Shown: piece after piece, positions 1 to 4,837 of the stretch
Position numbering within the stretch: the first letter of the stretch is position 1
Layout: every line of letters begins with the position of its first letter
DNA from: a virus
Lineage: Duplodnaviria; Heunggongvirae; Uroviricota; Caudoviricetes
Length of the DNA stretch: 4,837 nucleotides
Direction: 5' to 3' (one strand)
Virus record (IMG/VR): IMGVR_UViG_2660238126_000002
Coordinates: 1 to 4,837 of that record
The notes under the pieces: model-generated
Databases searched by the model: none
What the model was told of the DNA's origin: nothing
Seen by the model: the letters and a program-made list of their open reading frames with translations, nothing else
Position numbers and translations under genes: made by a program

Positions 1-123
1 ATTTTTCCTCCATTGAATTTTATGTTTCGCATCTTAAAACAGACGAGGGAAAATAAAATGTACATGTCGCTGTTTCTGGACCCGCCTCGAGAAATTTTTA
101 TTATTTACTGTTGTGTAACAAGG

Positions 124-474
124 TTATAACGCCATCTGAGCCATTTTCTGATAATTCAATCTGTCTGCTGTATCACCGGGCAAGTGGTATTGTTTATTAC
201 GATAAAAAGCGGTGTCAGTAATCATTACGGCGGGAATATCGTGTTGCCAATAATTCAGGTGGTCAGAGAAATCAATACCGGGAATAAACCATGGGGCATT
301 CATAGAATAAACAGATAAATCCCGGGATGATAACAATGCCGTTTTTACCTGACGAACGGCGTTGATATCCTGTATTCTGCCGACCAGGCAATAAAGTCCC
401 CCCGATCGGGATAAAGCCAGGACATTGCGGGTAAGGGTAATCCTGGCTACCAGGCGCAGAGTCGTAATAGCCAA
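124..474 (-). pseudogene. M28-family zinc peptidase-like gene, C-terminal segment
   Basis: Translation contains NVLALSRSGG and then DFSDH...IPAVMITD...YHLPGDTADRLNY, matching the conserved C-terminal motifs of M28 aminopeptidases as I recall them. The expected catalytic core between the two motif groups is missing. Family assignment is by motif recall, not alignment. Confidence 0.4.
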
Positions 475-815
475 TCGGGGACGCCCTGCGCGGTAACTCT
501 GGCACCGCTACTGACAAAGAACTCTTTTATATACTCTACGGACCTATTCAGATTATCAATATTGTCGGCATTACGTGGATGCACAGTTTGTGTAAGATAA
601 CGAACTGTTTTTTCTAATTGCTCAGGACTGACGTGTCGGGGCGTTGGCGATAATGCAGTGACCCAGGGTTGGTAAAAATAATCAGAGGGAGTGAAATCAG
701 AAATAATATAACAAAAGGAGCGCGAAAATACCGTCAGCATGGTATTGCGGGCGGTCATCGTCTGCTGGTTGGTGATCCAGAAGGTTTTATAACCCGCCTG
801 TTTCATCATGTTCAT
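447..815 (-). pseudogene. Same M28-like gene, N-terminal segment in a different frame
   Basis: Translation ...RYLTQTVHPRNADNIDNLNRSVEYIKEFFVSSGARVTAQG resembles the N-terminal region of M28 peptidases. The frame is open upstream to 923 with no SD before the ATG at 815, and it overlaps the 124-474 ORF in another frame, implying a frameshift near 447-474. Confidence 0.4.
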
Positions 816-910
816 CAGCGACGGCTGCGTCAGATACAGATCCGGGTTCTTTTCATTGGCAAAGGTCAGCGNNTNTATCGCGCTGATTTGGCAATTGTGA
901 TGATAAAATA

Positions 911-929
911 AAGTGAAGTTTTTTCACTT
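911..929. promoter_or_regulatory. Perfect inverted repeat AAGTGAA-gtttt-TTCACTT, candidate operator just upstream of the HTH gene
   Basis: 7-bp arms with a 5-bp spacer read directly from the sequence, 16 bp upstream of the ATG at 945 and next to a plausible SD (aaagg at 934-938). Confidence 0.3.
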
Positions 930-944
930 TTTCAAAGGTGTTTT

Positions 945-1196
945 ATGACTGGCTGGGAACTGCGAATCTGGCGAAAAAGCATGCTCTGGTCACGCGAAAA
1001 AGCGGCCAGAGAATTTGGCGTGACGCAGAGAACATGGCACGCCTGGGAAAATGCGGAACAGGTGGACGTCACCGTCTGGAGGACCACCCAGGCACTTTCA
1101 GTCCGTGACCTGCTGCCTCACATGCAGGGGATGCGCAAGGCAGATATCATCAGGCGTCTGGAAAATGAACTGGGGGAAACGGCAGAGGATGTGTGA
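945..1196 (+). CDS. Small HTH DNA-binding protein (XRE/Cro-like), 83 aa
   Basis: ATG at 945 with SD-like aaagg 6-10 nt upstream; stop TGA at 1194-1196. The segment REKAAREFGVTQRTWHAWENA fits an HTH pattern of the XRE/Cro type. Confidence 0.6.
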   Translation: MTGWELRIWRKSMLWSREKAAREFGVTQRTWHAWENAEQVDVTVWRTTQALSVRDLLPHMQGMRKADIIRRLENELGETAEDV

Positions 1197-1207
1197 GCGT
1201 GATTCAC

Positions 1208-1228
1208 AGCCTGGCAGAATGCCAGGCT
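1208..1228. terminator. Hairpin between convergent genes (AGCCTGGCA-gaa-TGCCAGGCT)
   Basis: Perfect 9-bp stem with 3-nt loop between the HTH gene stop (1196) and the stop of the minus-strand small ORF (1227). No clear U-tract on either strand, so terminator function is inferred from position only. Confidence 0.35.
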
Positions 1229-1433
1229 ACTGCTCATCAGGAAACAGTTTTTTCAGTTCTTCACCGGAAAGTCCGGCTGCCTCCTGAATCCGTTCCGGCG
1301 TCCAGCCCATATCCCGCAGCCGGCAGGCTGCTTCCCGCGCCACTTCAAGCGCACCTTTCTTAAAACCTTCTTTAAAACCTTCGTCGAAACCTTCGTCGAA
1401 ACCTTTCTGTATAAGACGTTCTGCAATCGTCAT
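1227..1433 (-). CDS. Orphan Rpn-family C-terminal-domain-like small protein (DUF4351-type), 68 aa
   Basis: [60 protein letters not shown] matches the C-terminal tail of YhgA/Rpn-like (transposase_31) proteins: repeated (E/K)G units followed by a ...GLS.EEL segment. The N-terminal nuclease domain is absent; the frame is open only to 1511 upstream. Confidence 0.55.
1359..1406. repeat. Four tandem copies of a ~12-bp unit (aaaccttcgtcg-like) inside the small ORF
   Basis: Read directly: ttaaaaccttct / ttaaaaccttcg / tcgaaaccttcg / tcgaaacctttc, encoding the [17 protein letters not shown] repeat. Confidence 0.7.
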
Positions 1434-1456
1434 ACTGTTTTCTCTGCTCCTGCTGG

Positions 1457-1482
1457 CAAAAGGCCCGGTATTTTGCCGGGCT
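1457..1482 (-). terminator. Candidate intrinsic terminator on the minus strand
   Basis: Minus-strand read is AGCCCGG-caaaata-CCGGGCC followed by TTTTG: a GC-rich 6-bp stem plus a short U-tract. Confidence 0.4.
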
Positions 1483-1512
1483 GTGAGGTTCTCATCAGTG
1501 AATGATTTTCTT

Positions 1513-1698
1513 CAGTTCAACCTGCTCGACACCCCGGGGCACGAAGACTTCTCGGAAGATACCTATCGTACCCTGACGGCGGTGGACTGCTGCCTGATGG
1601 TTATCGACGCTGCAAAAGGTGTTGAAGATCGTACCCGTAAGCTGATGGAAGTTACCCGTCTGCGCGACACGCCGATCCTCACCTTTATGAACAAAGAC
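1513..1698 (+). pseudogene. prfC: Internal fragment of peptide chain release factor 3 gene (about 60 codons)
   Basis: Translation [59 protein letters not shown] matches the G-domain region of PrfC (about residues 78-137 by recall). Flanking residues on both sides do not match PrfC, and there is no native start or stop. Confidence 0.75.
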
Positions 1699-1882
1699 CA
1701 GCGATCGGTGAGATCGTGCCGCCCGGCGTCGATCAGGGTGATCGCGTCGTTAAACTTCACTACGCCGCTGCATGGCTGGCGGCGATACTGCGGCGAGCGC
1801 CGCGCTCTGGCGCAGGCCGCGCACTCGCAGCCCCATGCCGGAACGCCCTGTGCGCCGCCAGTGCCGGTGAGCGTGAGGGTNA

Positions 1883-2248
1883 GGCCANNTCTNCNTCTCG
1901 CATGTTCTGCATGATGATGCGACGGCGGCGGTAAGCCGGGTCCGCCAGATTCTGCGGATCTTCATCCGGCAGGCGACGCAGGGTCATCTGCGGATTCACC
2001 TCATGCTTGGGTTTGACATATCCCGGCGTAAATTCAGAGGTGGAGCCGCCACGGGAACGGATAACCTCACCGGAAACAATCGGCGAAACGTACAGCGCCA
2101 TGTTTACCAGTCCCGGAATTTGTGAGAGATAGACTTTCTCCGTGGTGAAGGGATAGCTCTCACGGAAAAAGAGACGCAGAAACAGCGGATCAAACTTAAA
2201 TTTCTGCTCATTTGCCGCCAGCAGCTGGGCGGTTGTGTACATCGACAT
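1883..2248 (-). pseudogene. E: Lambda-type major capsid protein gene, 5' fragment (first ~122 codons)
   Basis: MSMYTTAQLLAANEQKFKFDPLFLRLFFRESYPFTTEKVY...PAYRRRRIIMQNMR matches the N-terminus of lambda gpE. Similarity stops after about codon 122, at the N-containing stretch 1881-1895, and the frame continues into unrelated GC-rich sequence. Confidence 0.9.
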
Positions 2249-2268
2249 AAAAAAATCCCGTAAAAAAA

Positions 2269-2282
2269 GCCGCACAGGCGGC
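2269..2282 (-). other. Short hairpin in the D-E intergenic region, followed by a T-run on the coding strand
   Basis: Minus-strand read is GCCGC-ctgt-GCGGC then TTTTTTT (plus-strand A-run 2262-2268), ending about 14 nt before the E start codon. No SD is visible for E. Confidence 0.3.
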
Positions 2283-2303
2283 CTTTAGTGATGAAGGGTA
2301 AGG

Positions 2304-2636
2304 TTAAACGATGCTGATTGCCGTTCCGGCAAACGCGGTCCGTTTTTTCGTCTCGTCGCTGGCAGCCTCCGGCCAGAGCACATCCTCATAACGGAACGTG
2401 CCGGACTTGTAGAACGTCAGCGTGGTGCTGGTCTGGTCAGCATCAACCGCCAGAATGCCAACGGCAGTACCGTCGGTGGTGCCATCCCACGCAACCAGCT
2501 TACGGGTGGAGGTGTCCAGCATCAGCGGGGTCATTGCAGGCGCTTTCGCACTCAATCCGCCGGGCGCGGTTGCCGTATGTGCCGGGTCACTGTTGCCCAG
2601 CGGCTGGTAATGGGTAAAGGTTTCTTTGCTCGTCAT
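2304..2636 (-). CDS. D: Lambda-type head decoration protein, 110 aa, intact
   Basis: [56 protein letters not shown]...TAISIV is near-identical to lambda gpD as recalled. SD AAGGGA lies 5 nt upstream of the ATG at 2636. The 9-nt gap to the upstream stop and 55-nt gap to E match the lambda spacing I recall. Confidence 0.95.
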
Positions 2637-2645
2637 AAACATCCC

Positions 2646-3041
2646 TTACACTGGTGTGTTCAGCAAATCGTTAACGGCATCAGATGCCGGGTTACCTGCA
2701 GCCAGTGGTGCCGGTGCCCCCTGCATCAGACGATCCAGCGCAGTGTCACTGCGCGCCTGTGCACTCTGTGGTGCAGCTGCCAGAATGCGGCGGGCCGTTT
2801 CCACGGTCATACCGGGGGTTTCGGCCAGCACACGTGCCTGTTCTTCGCGTCCGTGAGCTTCCTCACAGTTGAGGATCCCCATAATGCGGCTGTTTTCTGC
2901 CGCAACCGCAGCGGTGATCTGCGCGTTCACGTCCGGCTGCGCCGCGCTGGCGTTTTCGCCCTCCGTCGCTTGCACCACGTCAGTAACGTCAGCCTGCGAA
3001 GCAGTGGCTGAAACAGTTGTTGATTGAGTCTCTTTGGTCAT
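2646..3041 (-). CDS. Nu3: Lambda-type scaffolding protein, nested in-frame in the C-like ORF, 131 aa
   Basis: Internal ATG at 3041 is preceded by a strong SD (AGGAGG, then gcgaa). Product MTKETQSTTVSATASQ...NDLLNTPV is Ala/Gln-rich and scaffold-like. It contains GGATCC at 2873-2878 and GGTTACC at 2690-2696, which I recall as lambda landmark sites. An alternative in-frame ATG exists at 3251. Confidence 0.8.
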   Translation of the reverse strand: MTKETQSTTVSATASQADVTDVVQATEGENASAAQPDVNAQITAAVAAENSRIMGILNCEEAHGREEQARVLAETPGMTVETARRILAAAPQSAQARSDTALDRLMQGAPAPLAAGNPASDAVNDLLNTPV

Positions 3042-3617
3042 TCGCCCTCCTGAGAGACGGGATTTACGTGCATCCAGTGCATCACGCATAACGGTGATCG
3101 CATCGGTGCTGTTGACAAGTTCATCAGCCAGTCCGGCATCAATGGCCTCCTGACCGCTGTACATTGCAGCCTCGGTATCCAGCACAGCCTGCACGGACAG
3201 GCCGGTATATGCCGACACCTTCTGCGCAAACATCCGGCNGGTTGCATCCATCCGGGNCTGCAGTGTCTCGCCGTCATAGGTAATCGGGTTACCGCACGCT
3301 TCCGGGTTCCAGCCCAGCAGAGCCTTAAAGAGCATCTGCCGGACATCGTCCACCACATCATACGAGGCAAACTGACCGCGCTCATCACGCCCGTTACTCA
3401 GTATGACAACCACGGAGAAGCCCTCTTTCAGCTCCTGCCAGTAGTCGGTCTGGCTTTTGTTTTCTCCCGGAGAGTCATCACCCGGTACCACATACGCCGC
3501 CGGGAGTCTCAGCTTTCCGACCTCCGGCAGATTTTTGAACTGTGCCGCGCCTGCTACCCGGTTTTCAAAATACGGGCAGCGGGCACGCAGCGCAGCAATA
3601 ACAGGCGTCAGTTTCAT
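2646..3617 (-). CDS. Chimeric ORF: non-lambda N-terminal ~110 aa joined in-frame to the C-terminal part of a lambda C-like (S49 prohead protease) gene plus Nu3
   Basis: Continuous 323-codon frame. Residues from about 110 onward (...ETLQ.RMDAT.RMFAQKVSAYTGLSVQAVLDTE...) match the lambda gpC C-terminus. Residues 1-110 (MKLTPVIAALRARCPYFENRVAGAAQ...) carry no S49 catalytic-core motif that I can recognise. The ATG at 3617 overlaps the upstream ORF stop (ATGA, 3614-3617). N bases sit at 3239 and 3257. Confidence 0.6.
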   Translation of the reverse strand: MKLTPVIAALRARCPYFENRVAGAAQFKNLPEVGKLRLPAAYVVPGDDSPGENKSQTDYWQELKEGFSVVVILSNGRDERGQFASYDVVDDVRQMLFKALLGWNPEACGNPITYDGETLQXRMDATXRMFAQKVSAYTGLSVQAVLDTEAAMYSGQEAIDAGLADELVNSTDAITVMRDALDARKSRLSGGRMTKETQSTTVSATASQADVTDVVQATEGENASAAQPDVNAQITAAVAAENSRIMGILNCEEAHGREEQARVLAETPGMTVETARRILAAAPQSAQARSDTALDRLMQGAPAPLAAGNPASDAVNDLLNTPV

Positions 3618-4018
3618 CTGTGTCGTCGCTCCGGCTTCAGTGATTTACGCAATTCCCGCGCCAGAAAATAGCGTGTCCAGCTGCGGTTCTTTTCAAGCGT
3701 TTCCACCATAAAGTTATTACGTGGAGCCAGCCGCCAGCCGCTGCCACCGGATGCACCACGATGATGACTACGACGACGTTTTGCTCCTCCCCGGACACCA
3801 AAAAACAGAAACGCCGGATAGAAGTCACCAGAGATCATCCGGTTCCCCTTCCCGTTGCGCTGGTTAGGGGCAATGCGTGTCATAAAACCGGCTCGCTTTT
3901 TACTGGCTCTCGGCACCATGTAACCAATCGAACGAGCCAGGCGTCCGGTCTGATAACCGGGGTTTTCACCCGGTGCCGACCGCGCACGGCGCATCACCAG
4001 CCGACGGGCATCACGCAT
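3614..4018 (-). CDS. Arg-rich basic ORF, 134 aa, unknown function; possibly the 3' remnant of a longer phage gene
   Basis: Only open frame on this strand here, with E. coli-like codons (cgt, ctg, ccg, ggt). Stop overlaps the downstream start (ATGA). No SD before the ATG at 4018, which sits exactly where the sequence becomes AT-rich. Frame is open upstream only to 4084 with no further ATG. Confidence 0.35.
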   Translation of the reverse strand: MRDARRLVMRRARSAPGENPGYQTGRLARSIGYMVPRASKKRAGFMTRIAPNQRNGKGNRMISGDFYPAFLFFGVRGGAKRRRSHHRGASGGSGWRLAPRNNFMVETLEKNRSWTRYFLARELRKSLKPERRHR

Positions 4019-4034
4019 ATGACGCTGACCAATC

Positions 4035-4370
4035 GTGACAAACGATAGATTTATAAAATCTTCATTACCGATCCCTGAACTATACTATCTACCACAGAGA
4101 AAATTTACTGGGATTTCTTTAAAATACAAAGGAAAAATCCCATATACACCAGCTAGTTCAAAAATGAAATGGGATATAGTACAGTCTCTTTTGCTGAAAC
4201 AAACATCCTTATTTATATCAAACAACACAATGCAAGGAAGTAGGAGGAAAAACGAGTTCATCATAAACTCAATAATATGGAAAAAAAATGAAACCTCAAA
4301 TTGCGAATATTCAATCGAAGGAGGTGTTTATGCTCTGTTTAGGTATACTGGTAAGCCTGCTGGCTATTAG
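4035..4370 (+). CDS. AT-rich ORF (111 codons from GTG), possibly the 3' remnant of an acquired gene
   Basis: Stop TAG at 4368-4370 is immediately followed by an intrinsic terminator. There is no SD at the GTG start or at internal ATGs. Lys/Asn/Ile-rich, with no recognisable domain. Confidence 0.2.
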   Translation: MTNDRFIKSSLPIPELYYLPQRKFTGISLKYKGKIPYTPASSKMKWDIVQSLLLKQTSLFISNNTMQGSRRKNEFIINSIIWKKNETSNCEYSIEGGVYALFRYTGKPAGY

Positions 4371-4497
4371 ACCCTGCTTCGGCGGGGTTTTTTTATGGGC
4401 ACGGTGCGGGGTGAGTTGTCGGATGCGCTTCGCTTATCCGACCTACAGGGGAGGATATTGTAGGCCCGGTAAACGTGGTGCCATCGGGCAAAATTAG
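4330..4497 (+). CDS. Candidate small ORF (55 aa) with a near-perfect ribosome-binding site
   Basis: AAGGAGGTG at 4318-4326, 3-nt spacer, ATG at 4330. Product begins MLCLGILVSLLAI (hydrophobic). The frame runs through the terminator hairpin and both REP units, which argues against a conventional gene. Confidence 0.2.
   Translation: MLCLGILVSLLAIRPCFGGVFLWARCGVSCRMRFAYPTYRGGYCRPGKRGAIGQN
4371..4394 (+). terminator. Rho-independent terminator, plus strand
   Basis: Stem ACCCTGC / GCGGGGT (7 bp, one G-U pair) with a TTCG loop, followed by a 7-T run (4388-4394). Confidence 0.6.
4416..4489. repeat. Two REP-like palindromic units in opposite orientation (BIME-like)
   Basis: Unit 1 around 4418-4442 is GTCGGATGCGCTTCGCTTATCCGAC, followed by CTAC. 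Unit 2 around 4460-4489 is GTAGGCCCGGTAAACGTGGTGCCATCGGGC. Both resemble the enterobacterial REP consensus (GCCGGATGCG...CTTATCCGGCCTAC) as recalled. Confidence 0.6.
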
Positions 4498-4533
4498 CTC
4501 GGAGTAACAGGTTTTGATTATTTAAGGAAGTGA

Positions 4534-4728
4534 TGGTGGTGGGGGAAGGATTACTCAACGCTGCGCGCTTCGCCCTTCGGGTCGTTGCCTGCGGCAACGC
4601 TCTCTCGCTGCAAAATGAGTCAGGGAAAACGACACAATCAGGCGCTTATCGCCCTGGCGAGACGACGCTGCGACGTTCTGTTCGCCATGATGCGCGACGG
4701 GACTTTTTATACCCCGCAGGCGTCATAA
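4534..4728 (+). mobile_element. Probable 3'-terminal remnant of an IS110-family transposase gene
   Basis: The frame ending at TAA 4726-4728 encodes ...[34 protein letters not shown]. The spacing GK-9-AR-10-RDG and the hydrophobic pattern match the conserved C-terminus of IS110/IS116/IS902 transposases as I recall it. There is no start codon or SD, and no upstream transposase body in the window. Confidence 0.4.
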
Positions 4729-4837
4729 CATGCTTGACAACTTAATAGGGGTCCCCCGCTTCAGCCCCGTAAAACGCATCTGACTCCCGCACAACACGCA
4801 CTTCAGCGGGTCAACCTTTAGTAACCTCTGATACATC

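Follow-up and report, generated by a model that had tools for sequence, protein, structure and literature searches.

Does the AT-rich block near one end of this stretch of DNA mark an acquired gene, a small membrane peptide or a small-RNA locus, or does its appearance follow from the way in which the stretch came to be put together? The 4837 bp analysed here (hereafter the window) are the whole of contig CCBV01000687.1 of draft assembly GCA_000936365.1, in reverse orientation, as an exact look-up of one of its junction-spanning ORFs showed. The contig is number 687 in its assembly and occurs in one sample only, and a literature search on the assembly accession found no paper. A preliminary description, made from the sequence alone, had drawn attention to an abrupt change of composition, to an open reading frame (ORF) whose stop is followed directly by an intrinsic terminator and, in another frame, to an SD sequence with an ATG that opens a hydrophobic peptide.

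Composition and boundaries of the AT-rich block

That the block is AT-rich is confirmed by its GC content of 32.7 % (4045-4368), which compares with 57.1 % on the left (3269-4044) and 56.2 % on the right (4369-4610), the two steps having Fisher p values of 1.4e-13 and 3.3e-8. The switch had been placed at 4018/4019, exactly at the start codon of an Arg-rich ORF, and this placement does not hold. The homology break lies at 4044/4045: prophage identity, at 99.8 %, continues to 4044, and identity to a plasmid gene begins at 4045. Positions 4019-4044 are 50 % GC, and their minus strand still encodes the phage-gene residues R-F-V-T-I-G-Q-R-H. Composition alone locates the break no more finely than about 4030-4044, and the apparent agreement with the start codon arises by chance, the two lying some 26 bases apart. 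On the right, the block breaks off at 4368. The neighbouring pieces share 0 bases at the first of these joins and 1 base at the second.

Three pieces of different origin

The DNA to the left of the block belongs to a myovirus-like prophage. A query of 3560-4060 finds matches in over 1000 genomes of E. coli, with identities that reach 99.8 %, and each match ends at 4044. This piece holds a fragment of a tail-terminator gene and a hypothetical gene (3614-4044, minus strand) that in intact prophages sits between the head-closure and tail-terminator genes and that here is cut within its coding region at 4044. In intact prophages it continues for 76 bases beyond this point to an ATG preceded by GGAGG, which is the start of the PGAP version of the gene (507 nt, 168 aa). 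The ATG at 4018, where the 134-aa ORF 3614-4018 begins, is internal to that protein (residue 35 of 168) and has no SD, and the true start is most likely 34 codons farther upstream, behind a GGAGG that is absent from the contig. Annotations differ on this start, with 168 aa from PGAP vs 134 aa from other callers, and the 168-aa version overlaps the gene upstream of it; 4019-4044 is prophage DNA whichever start applies.

The AT-rich block itself is an internal fragment of an 861-nt plasmid gene annotated as "helix-turn-helix domain-containing protein", whose complete copies reside on plasmids of enterotoxigenic E. coli (ETEC). Its matches, at 96.6-99.4 % identity, fall on plasmids only, in 3 of the 5426 complete E. 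coli genomes and in 7 PLSDB records, and all of them end exactly at 4045 and 4368. The closest, which include p600468_158 and the TW10690 plasmid, differ from the window at 2 of 324 bases (99.4 % identity), and pE275a_90 stands at 96.6 %. Of this gene, which encodes 286 amino acids, the window holds the portion between base 2 of codon 118 and base 1 of codon 226, both included.

The parent protein matches the Pfam families HTH_18 (residues 30-106, E = 3.7e-17), HTH_AraC and GyrI-like (residues 133-270, 29.0 bits against a cut-off of 26). In this it resembles Rob, the right origin-binding protein of E. coli (PDB 1D5Y and 7VWY; AraC/XylS family, MarA/SoxS/Rob branch), which also combines an N-terminal double-HTH AraC domain with a C-terminal GyrI-like domain and is of similar length (289 vs 286 aa). 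Residues 9-254 of the parent align with Rob (7VWY/1D5Y) at E = 2.7e-23, a GG-Y-F-Y-G motif included. The parent is not Rob itself, however, since it reaches 130.9 bits with the NCBIfam RobA equivalog model, whose cut-off is 380; it is a distant, plasmid-borne Rob paralogue that differs from Rob also in being AT-rich and carried on ETEC F-type plasmids. The fragment in the window, beginning only at codon 118, has neither start nor stop and lacks the AraC-type double-HTH DNA-binding domain, and because it ends at residue 226, its GyrI-like domain is incomplete. Pfam gave no match for the 111-aa and 69-aa ORFs of the window.

Regulators of this kind form a family of 286-287 aa on ETEC F-type plasmids, with 75 PLSDB records that include pCoo, and the 8 copies that we compared share 64-100 % amino-acid identity. 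The gene adjoins an Rns-type AraC regulator in p600468 and pE275a and, in pE275a, an ANR-family gene as well. A literature search for AraC regulators with a GyrI-like domain on ETEC plasmids found no paper.

The piece to the right of the block equals a chromosomal stretch that starts 18 bases past the narI stop codon, narI being annotated just upstream in the chromosomes concerned. The clean intrinsic terminator of the preliminary description is real, with a stem of 9 pairs (5 of them GC), a 4-base loop and a T-run of 7 (-15.2 kcal/mol, z = -2.75), and because 4368-4610 shares 100 % identity over its whole length with the DNA that follows narI, the hairpin is the narGHJI terminator, whose stem in intact chromosomes lies 19 bases past the narI stop codon. 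The hairpin and T-run are the same in both settings, but in the window narI is missing and the terminator trails a foreign gene fragment only through the join. The same piece contains a palindromic stretch that we take to be REP-like and the 3' part of RtT (minus strand), which is cut at 4610. Beyond that point (4611-4757, plus strand) lies the 3' end of the IS110-family element ISEc20, with the last ~38 transposase codons and without the 5' non-coding region, abutting an IS91 fragment. Rfam reports RtT at 4534-4649 (minus strand, 49.7 bits), a match that overruns the 4610 join into ISEc20; the true RtT is 4534-4610 only, the 5' part of the model having been aligned to unrelated DNA.

These identities also settle what the ORF at 4035-4370 is. 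An ORF and a terminator directly behind its stop are both present, as had been described, but the stop is made by the join and the terminator is that of narI: the TAG at 4368-4370 consists of the last plasmid base and the first two chromosomal bases, and the plasmid gene has TCT (Ser) at this point. The suggestion that the ORF is the 3' end of an acquired gene was right insofar as its reading frame is the annotated, true coding frame of a foreign AT-rich plasmid gene, but the portion is internal (codons 118-226 of 286). The exact 111-aa product has no record in the gene collection. Because the fragment is joined to unrelated E. coli DNA on both sides, the AT-rich ORF, the SD and the terminator are not one functional unit.

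The contig as a patchwork

The block is one piece among many. BLAST and family scans resolve the contig into 11 or more unrelated pieces, drawn from E. coli chromosomal, prophage, plasmid and insertion-sequence DNA (Table 1), with joins near 719/720, 864-876, 1518/1519, 1695/1696, 1883-1885, 3269-3273, 4044/4045, 4368, 4610 and 4754-4757. Overlaps at the joins across the contig measure 0-5 bases, and two single-copy housekeeping genes, prfC and phnP, are cut mid-gene. The contig has 10 N bases, which form three clusters, and none of the 10 is more than 32 bases away from a join (chance about 0.003); the joins at either end of the AT-rich piece carry no N.

Table 1. Pieces of the contig and features of the AT-rich region (window coordinates).
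Feature	Position	Strand	Basis or remark
yfbL-locus variant	1-719		
cptA	720-864		
Plasmid HTH gene and Rpn nuclease gene	876-1518		
prfC (RF3 residues 82-142)	about 1519-1695		
phnP	1696-1885		
Lambda-like major capsid, decoration and S49 protease genes (E/D/S49)	1883-3273		
Second prophage, myovirus-like piece	3269-4044	-	up to 99.8 % identity, E. coli genomes
Chimeric 111-codon ORF	4035-4370	+	GTG start in prophage, body from regulator fragment, TAG at join
Internal fragment of Rob-like regulator gene	4045-4368 (324 bases)	+	plasmid matches
SD-like AAGGAGGT (4318-4325), GTTT, ATG (4330-4332)	4318-4332	+	sequence motif
55-codon "hydrophobic peptide" ORF	4330-4497	+	crosses join at 4368; gene call on source contig
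narI-tyrV intergenic chromosomal piece	4368-4610		100 % identity to intact E. coli chromosomes
narGHJI intrinsic terminator (stem-loop 4369-4390 and T-run)	4369-4394	+	folding and homology
ISEc20 3' end	4610-4757		
IS91	4754-4837		

None of the joins was encountered elsewhere. In the 5426 complete E. coli genomes, no query made up of more than one piece is covered to even 80 % at any one place; in PLSDB, no match to a query of 3950-4460 crosses either the 4044/4045 or the 4368 join; and the junction 27- and 28-mers of both joins of the AT-rich piece are absent from genome and metagenome contig collections. A horizontally acquired chromosomal island was considered as well and is rejected, as no genomic place covers even that share of a multi-piece query, and the two flanks, one from inside a prophage gene and the other from the 3' region of narI, adjoin in no complete genome.

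The gene caller applied to the source contig called at least four ORFs that span junctions, 4330-4497 (+), 2646-3617 (-), 447-815 (-) and 1498-1914 (+). One of the junction-spanning calls is a protein of 323 aa that begins as a tail-terminator protein and ends as an S49 protease, and another is a fusion of cptA with the yfbL locus. Artificial fusion proteins from this contig are now in public protein collections.

Origin of the joins

We consider it highly probable, at roughly 0.93, that the window is a chimera that arose when the library was prepared or the contig assembled, and we infer that its joins were formed at one of these stages and not in a cell. Chimeric or misassembled draft contigs are likewise made of short unrelated fragments with overlaps of 0-5 bases and ambiguous bases clustered at the joins; they likewise have joins that are unique to one contig of a fragmented assembly, and junction-crossing artificial ORFs that are called as genes. 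In the window, the 324-base scrap of the regulator gene has a truncated prophage gene on one side and, on the other, the chromosomal DNA that directly follows narI, and the sharp steps in composition are the joins of a 33 % GC plasmid gene to DNA of 56-57 % GC. The arrangement of an ORF with a terminator and the long SD-led hydrophobic ORF are both by-products of the joins. As to the route, ligation of sheared fragments, an overlap-consensus misjoin and concatenation are all possibilities, and overlaps of 0-5 bases are not the usual output of a k-mer assembler. Restriction-site ligation was considered as an origin and set aside, no shared motif being visible in the junction contexts.

The strongest competitor, although an improbable one, is a mosaic that truly exists in the source strain, where illegitimate recombination would have left part of the Rob-like plasmid gene as a decaying pseudogene scrap between a prophage and the narI 3' region. 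The ETEC plasmids that carry the parent gene are full of IS elements and gene remnants, the contig ends in fragments of ISEc20 and IS91, and the joins around the regulator fragment are clean and free of N, all of which would be in keeping with such a history. Within 4.8 kb, however, some 10 blunt joins would have had to arise independently, several of which interrupt prfC, phnP, RtT and other genes midway, and this reading would have to accommodate the ambiguous bases at three joins and the failure to find any join in the 5426 complete genomes, in PLSDB (3950-4460) or in the genome and metagenome contig sets. Even if the mosaic were real, the fragment would still be without a start, a DNA-binding domain and the end of its GyrI-like domain.

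The SD-led open reading frame

The near-perfect SD and ATG exist as sequence: motifs of the form AGGAGG-N3-9-ATG number 3 in the window, with 0.14 expected. In the parent gene, the bases concerned are the codons GAA GGA GGT GTT TAT GCT (Glu209-Gly-Gly-Val-Tyr-Ala214), and the GG-Y-F-Y-G motif that holds the SD-like bases aligns with QGGEYVMFTYEG of Rob. The frame opened by the ATG at 4330 runs in p600468 and pE275a for 16 codons, MLCLGIPVSLLAILII, and then meets a stop; it is 55 codons long in the window because the join removes this stop.

Conservation was compared among 8 plasmid copies of the gene family (64-100 % amino-acid identity, pCoo included). In paralogues of 64-75 % identity the codons at the SD site are GAG GGC GGT, GAG GAA GGC or GAT GAA GGT, and the SD is lost; the overlapping peptides in these genes read MLYLDMQAIQMVILLT, MHDLHIKVSKMVILLI or MRALHIKER followed by a stop. 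The overlapping peptide thus varies freely or shrinks to 9 codons, and the main frame of 286-287 aa is open in all 8 copies. Conservation of either frame in related genomes was part of the test set by the preliminary description; the regulator frame stays open, and conservation is seen neither for the SD nor for the overlapping peptide.

Both of the other motifs of the AGGAGG-N-ATG kind are on the minus strand within the lambda-like protease/scaffold gene. That at 3039-3051 is in frame (…SGGRMTKETQ…) and is presumably an internal Nu3-like scaffold start, and that at 3137-3151 is out of frame.

If the mosaic were real after all, it might express a chimeric small protein, either a fragment of the Rob-like effector domain or the SD-led ORF fused to the narI terminator region, and, separately, the 16-codon ORF of the p600468 type might be a lineage-specific small protein; we regard these proposals as very unlikely. 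Less credible still is that the ATG at 4330 and its SD belong to a genuine small hydrophobic protein encoded out of frame within the Rob-like gene, with MLCLGIPVSLLAILII as its 16-aa plasmid form. The geometry is near ideal (AAGGAGGT, four bases, ATG), the motif is far above its chance expectation in the window, both close plasmid alleles contain the ORF, and the gene caller had called 4330-4497 on the source contig. Yet the SD falls on codons for Glu-Gly-Gly and the ATG on those for Tyr-Ala, within a motif common to Rob, the SD is lost in the paralogues of 64-75 % identity, where the peptide shows no conservation of its own, and the out-of-frame AGGAGG-ATG in the phage gene at 3137-3151 demonstrates that the motif can arise by chance in coding DNA. 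The small membrane peptide proposed at the outset is therefore not borne out, being 16 codons long in the nearest plasmids and, like its SD, unconserved in paralogues. The proposal of a small-RNA locus with its end at the 4369-4390 hairpin, to which the clean terminator at the 3' end had lent some support, we dismiss as next to impossible, since the terminator is narI's own and arrived with the chromosomal piece, the body is protein-coding sequence of the regulator gene, a permissive Rfam search of the whole window (E <= 1) has RtT as its only real match and none in 4019-4394, and a promoter scan of 3600-4837 found no plus-strand promoter-like site and, with 2 minus-strand sites against 1.2 expected, no more than chance on the other strand.

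Implications

The narI terminator and this kind of assembly artefact are both already known, and the arrangement seen here is not a real feature. Because its layout of ORF, terminator and SD-led ORF is a by-product of the joins, no function attaches to it. The case is a caution that, in the short contigs of fragmented draft assemblies, steps in composition, ORFs made by junctions and terminators taken from elsewhere can mimic acquired genes, small proteins and small-RNA loci. The sole biological lead to come from the window lies outside it, in the uncharacterised family of Rob-like regulators on ETEC virulence plasmids.
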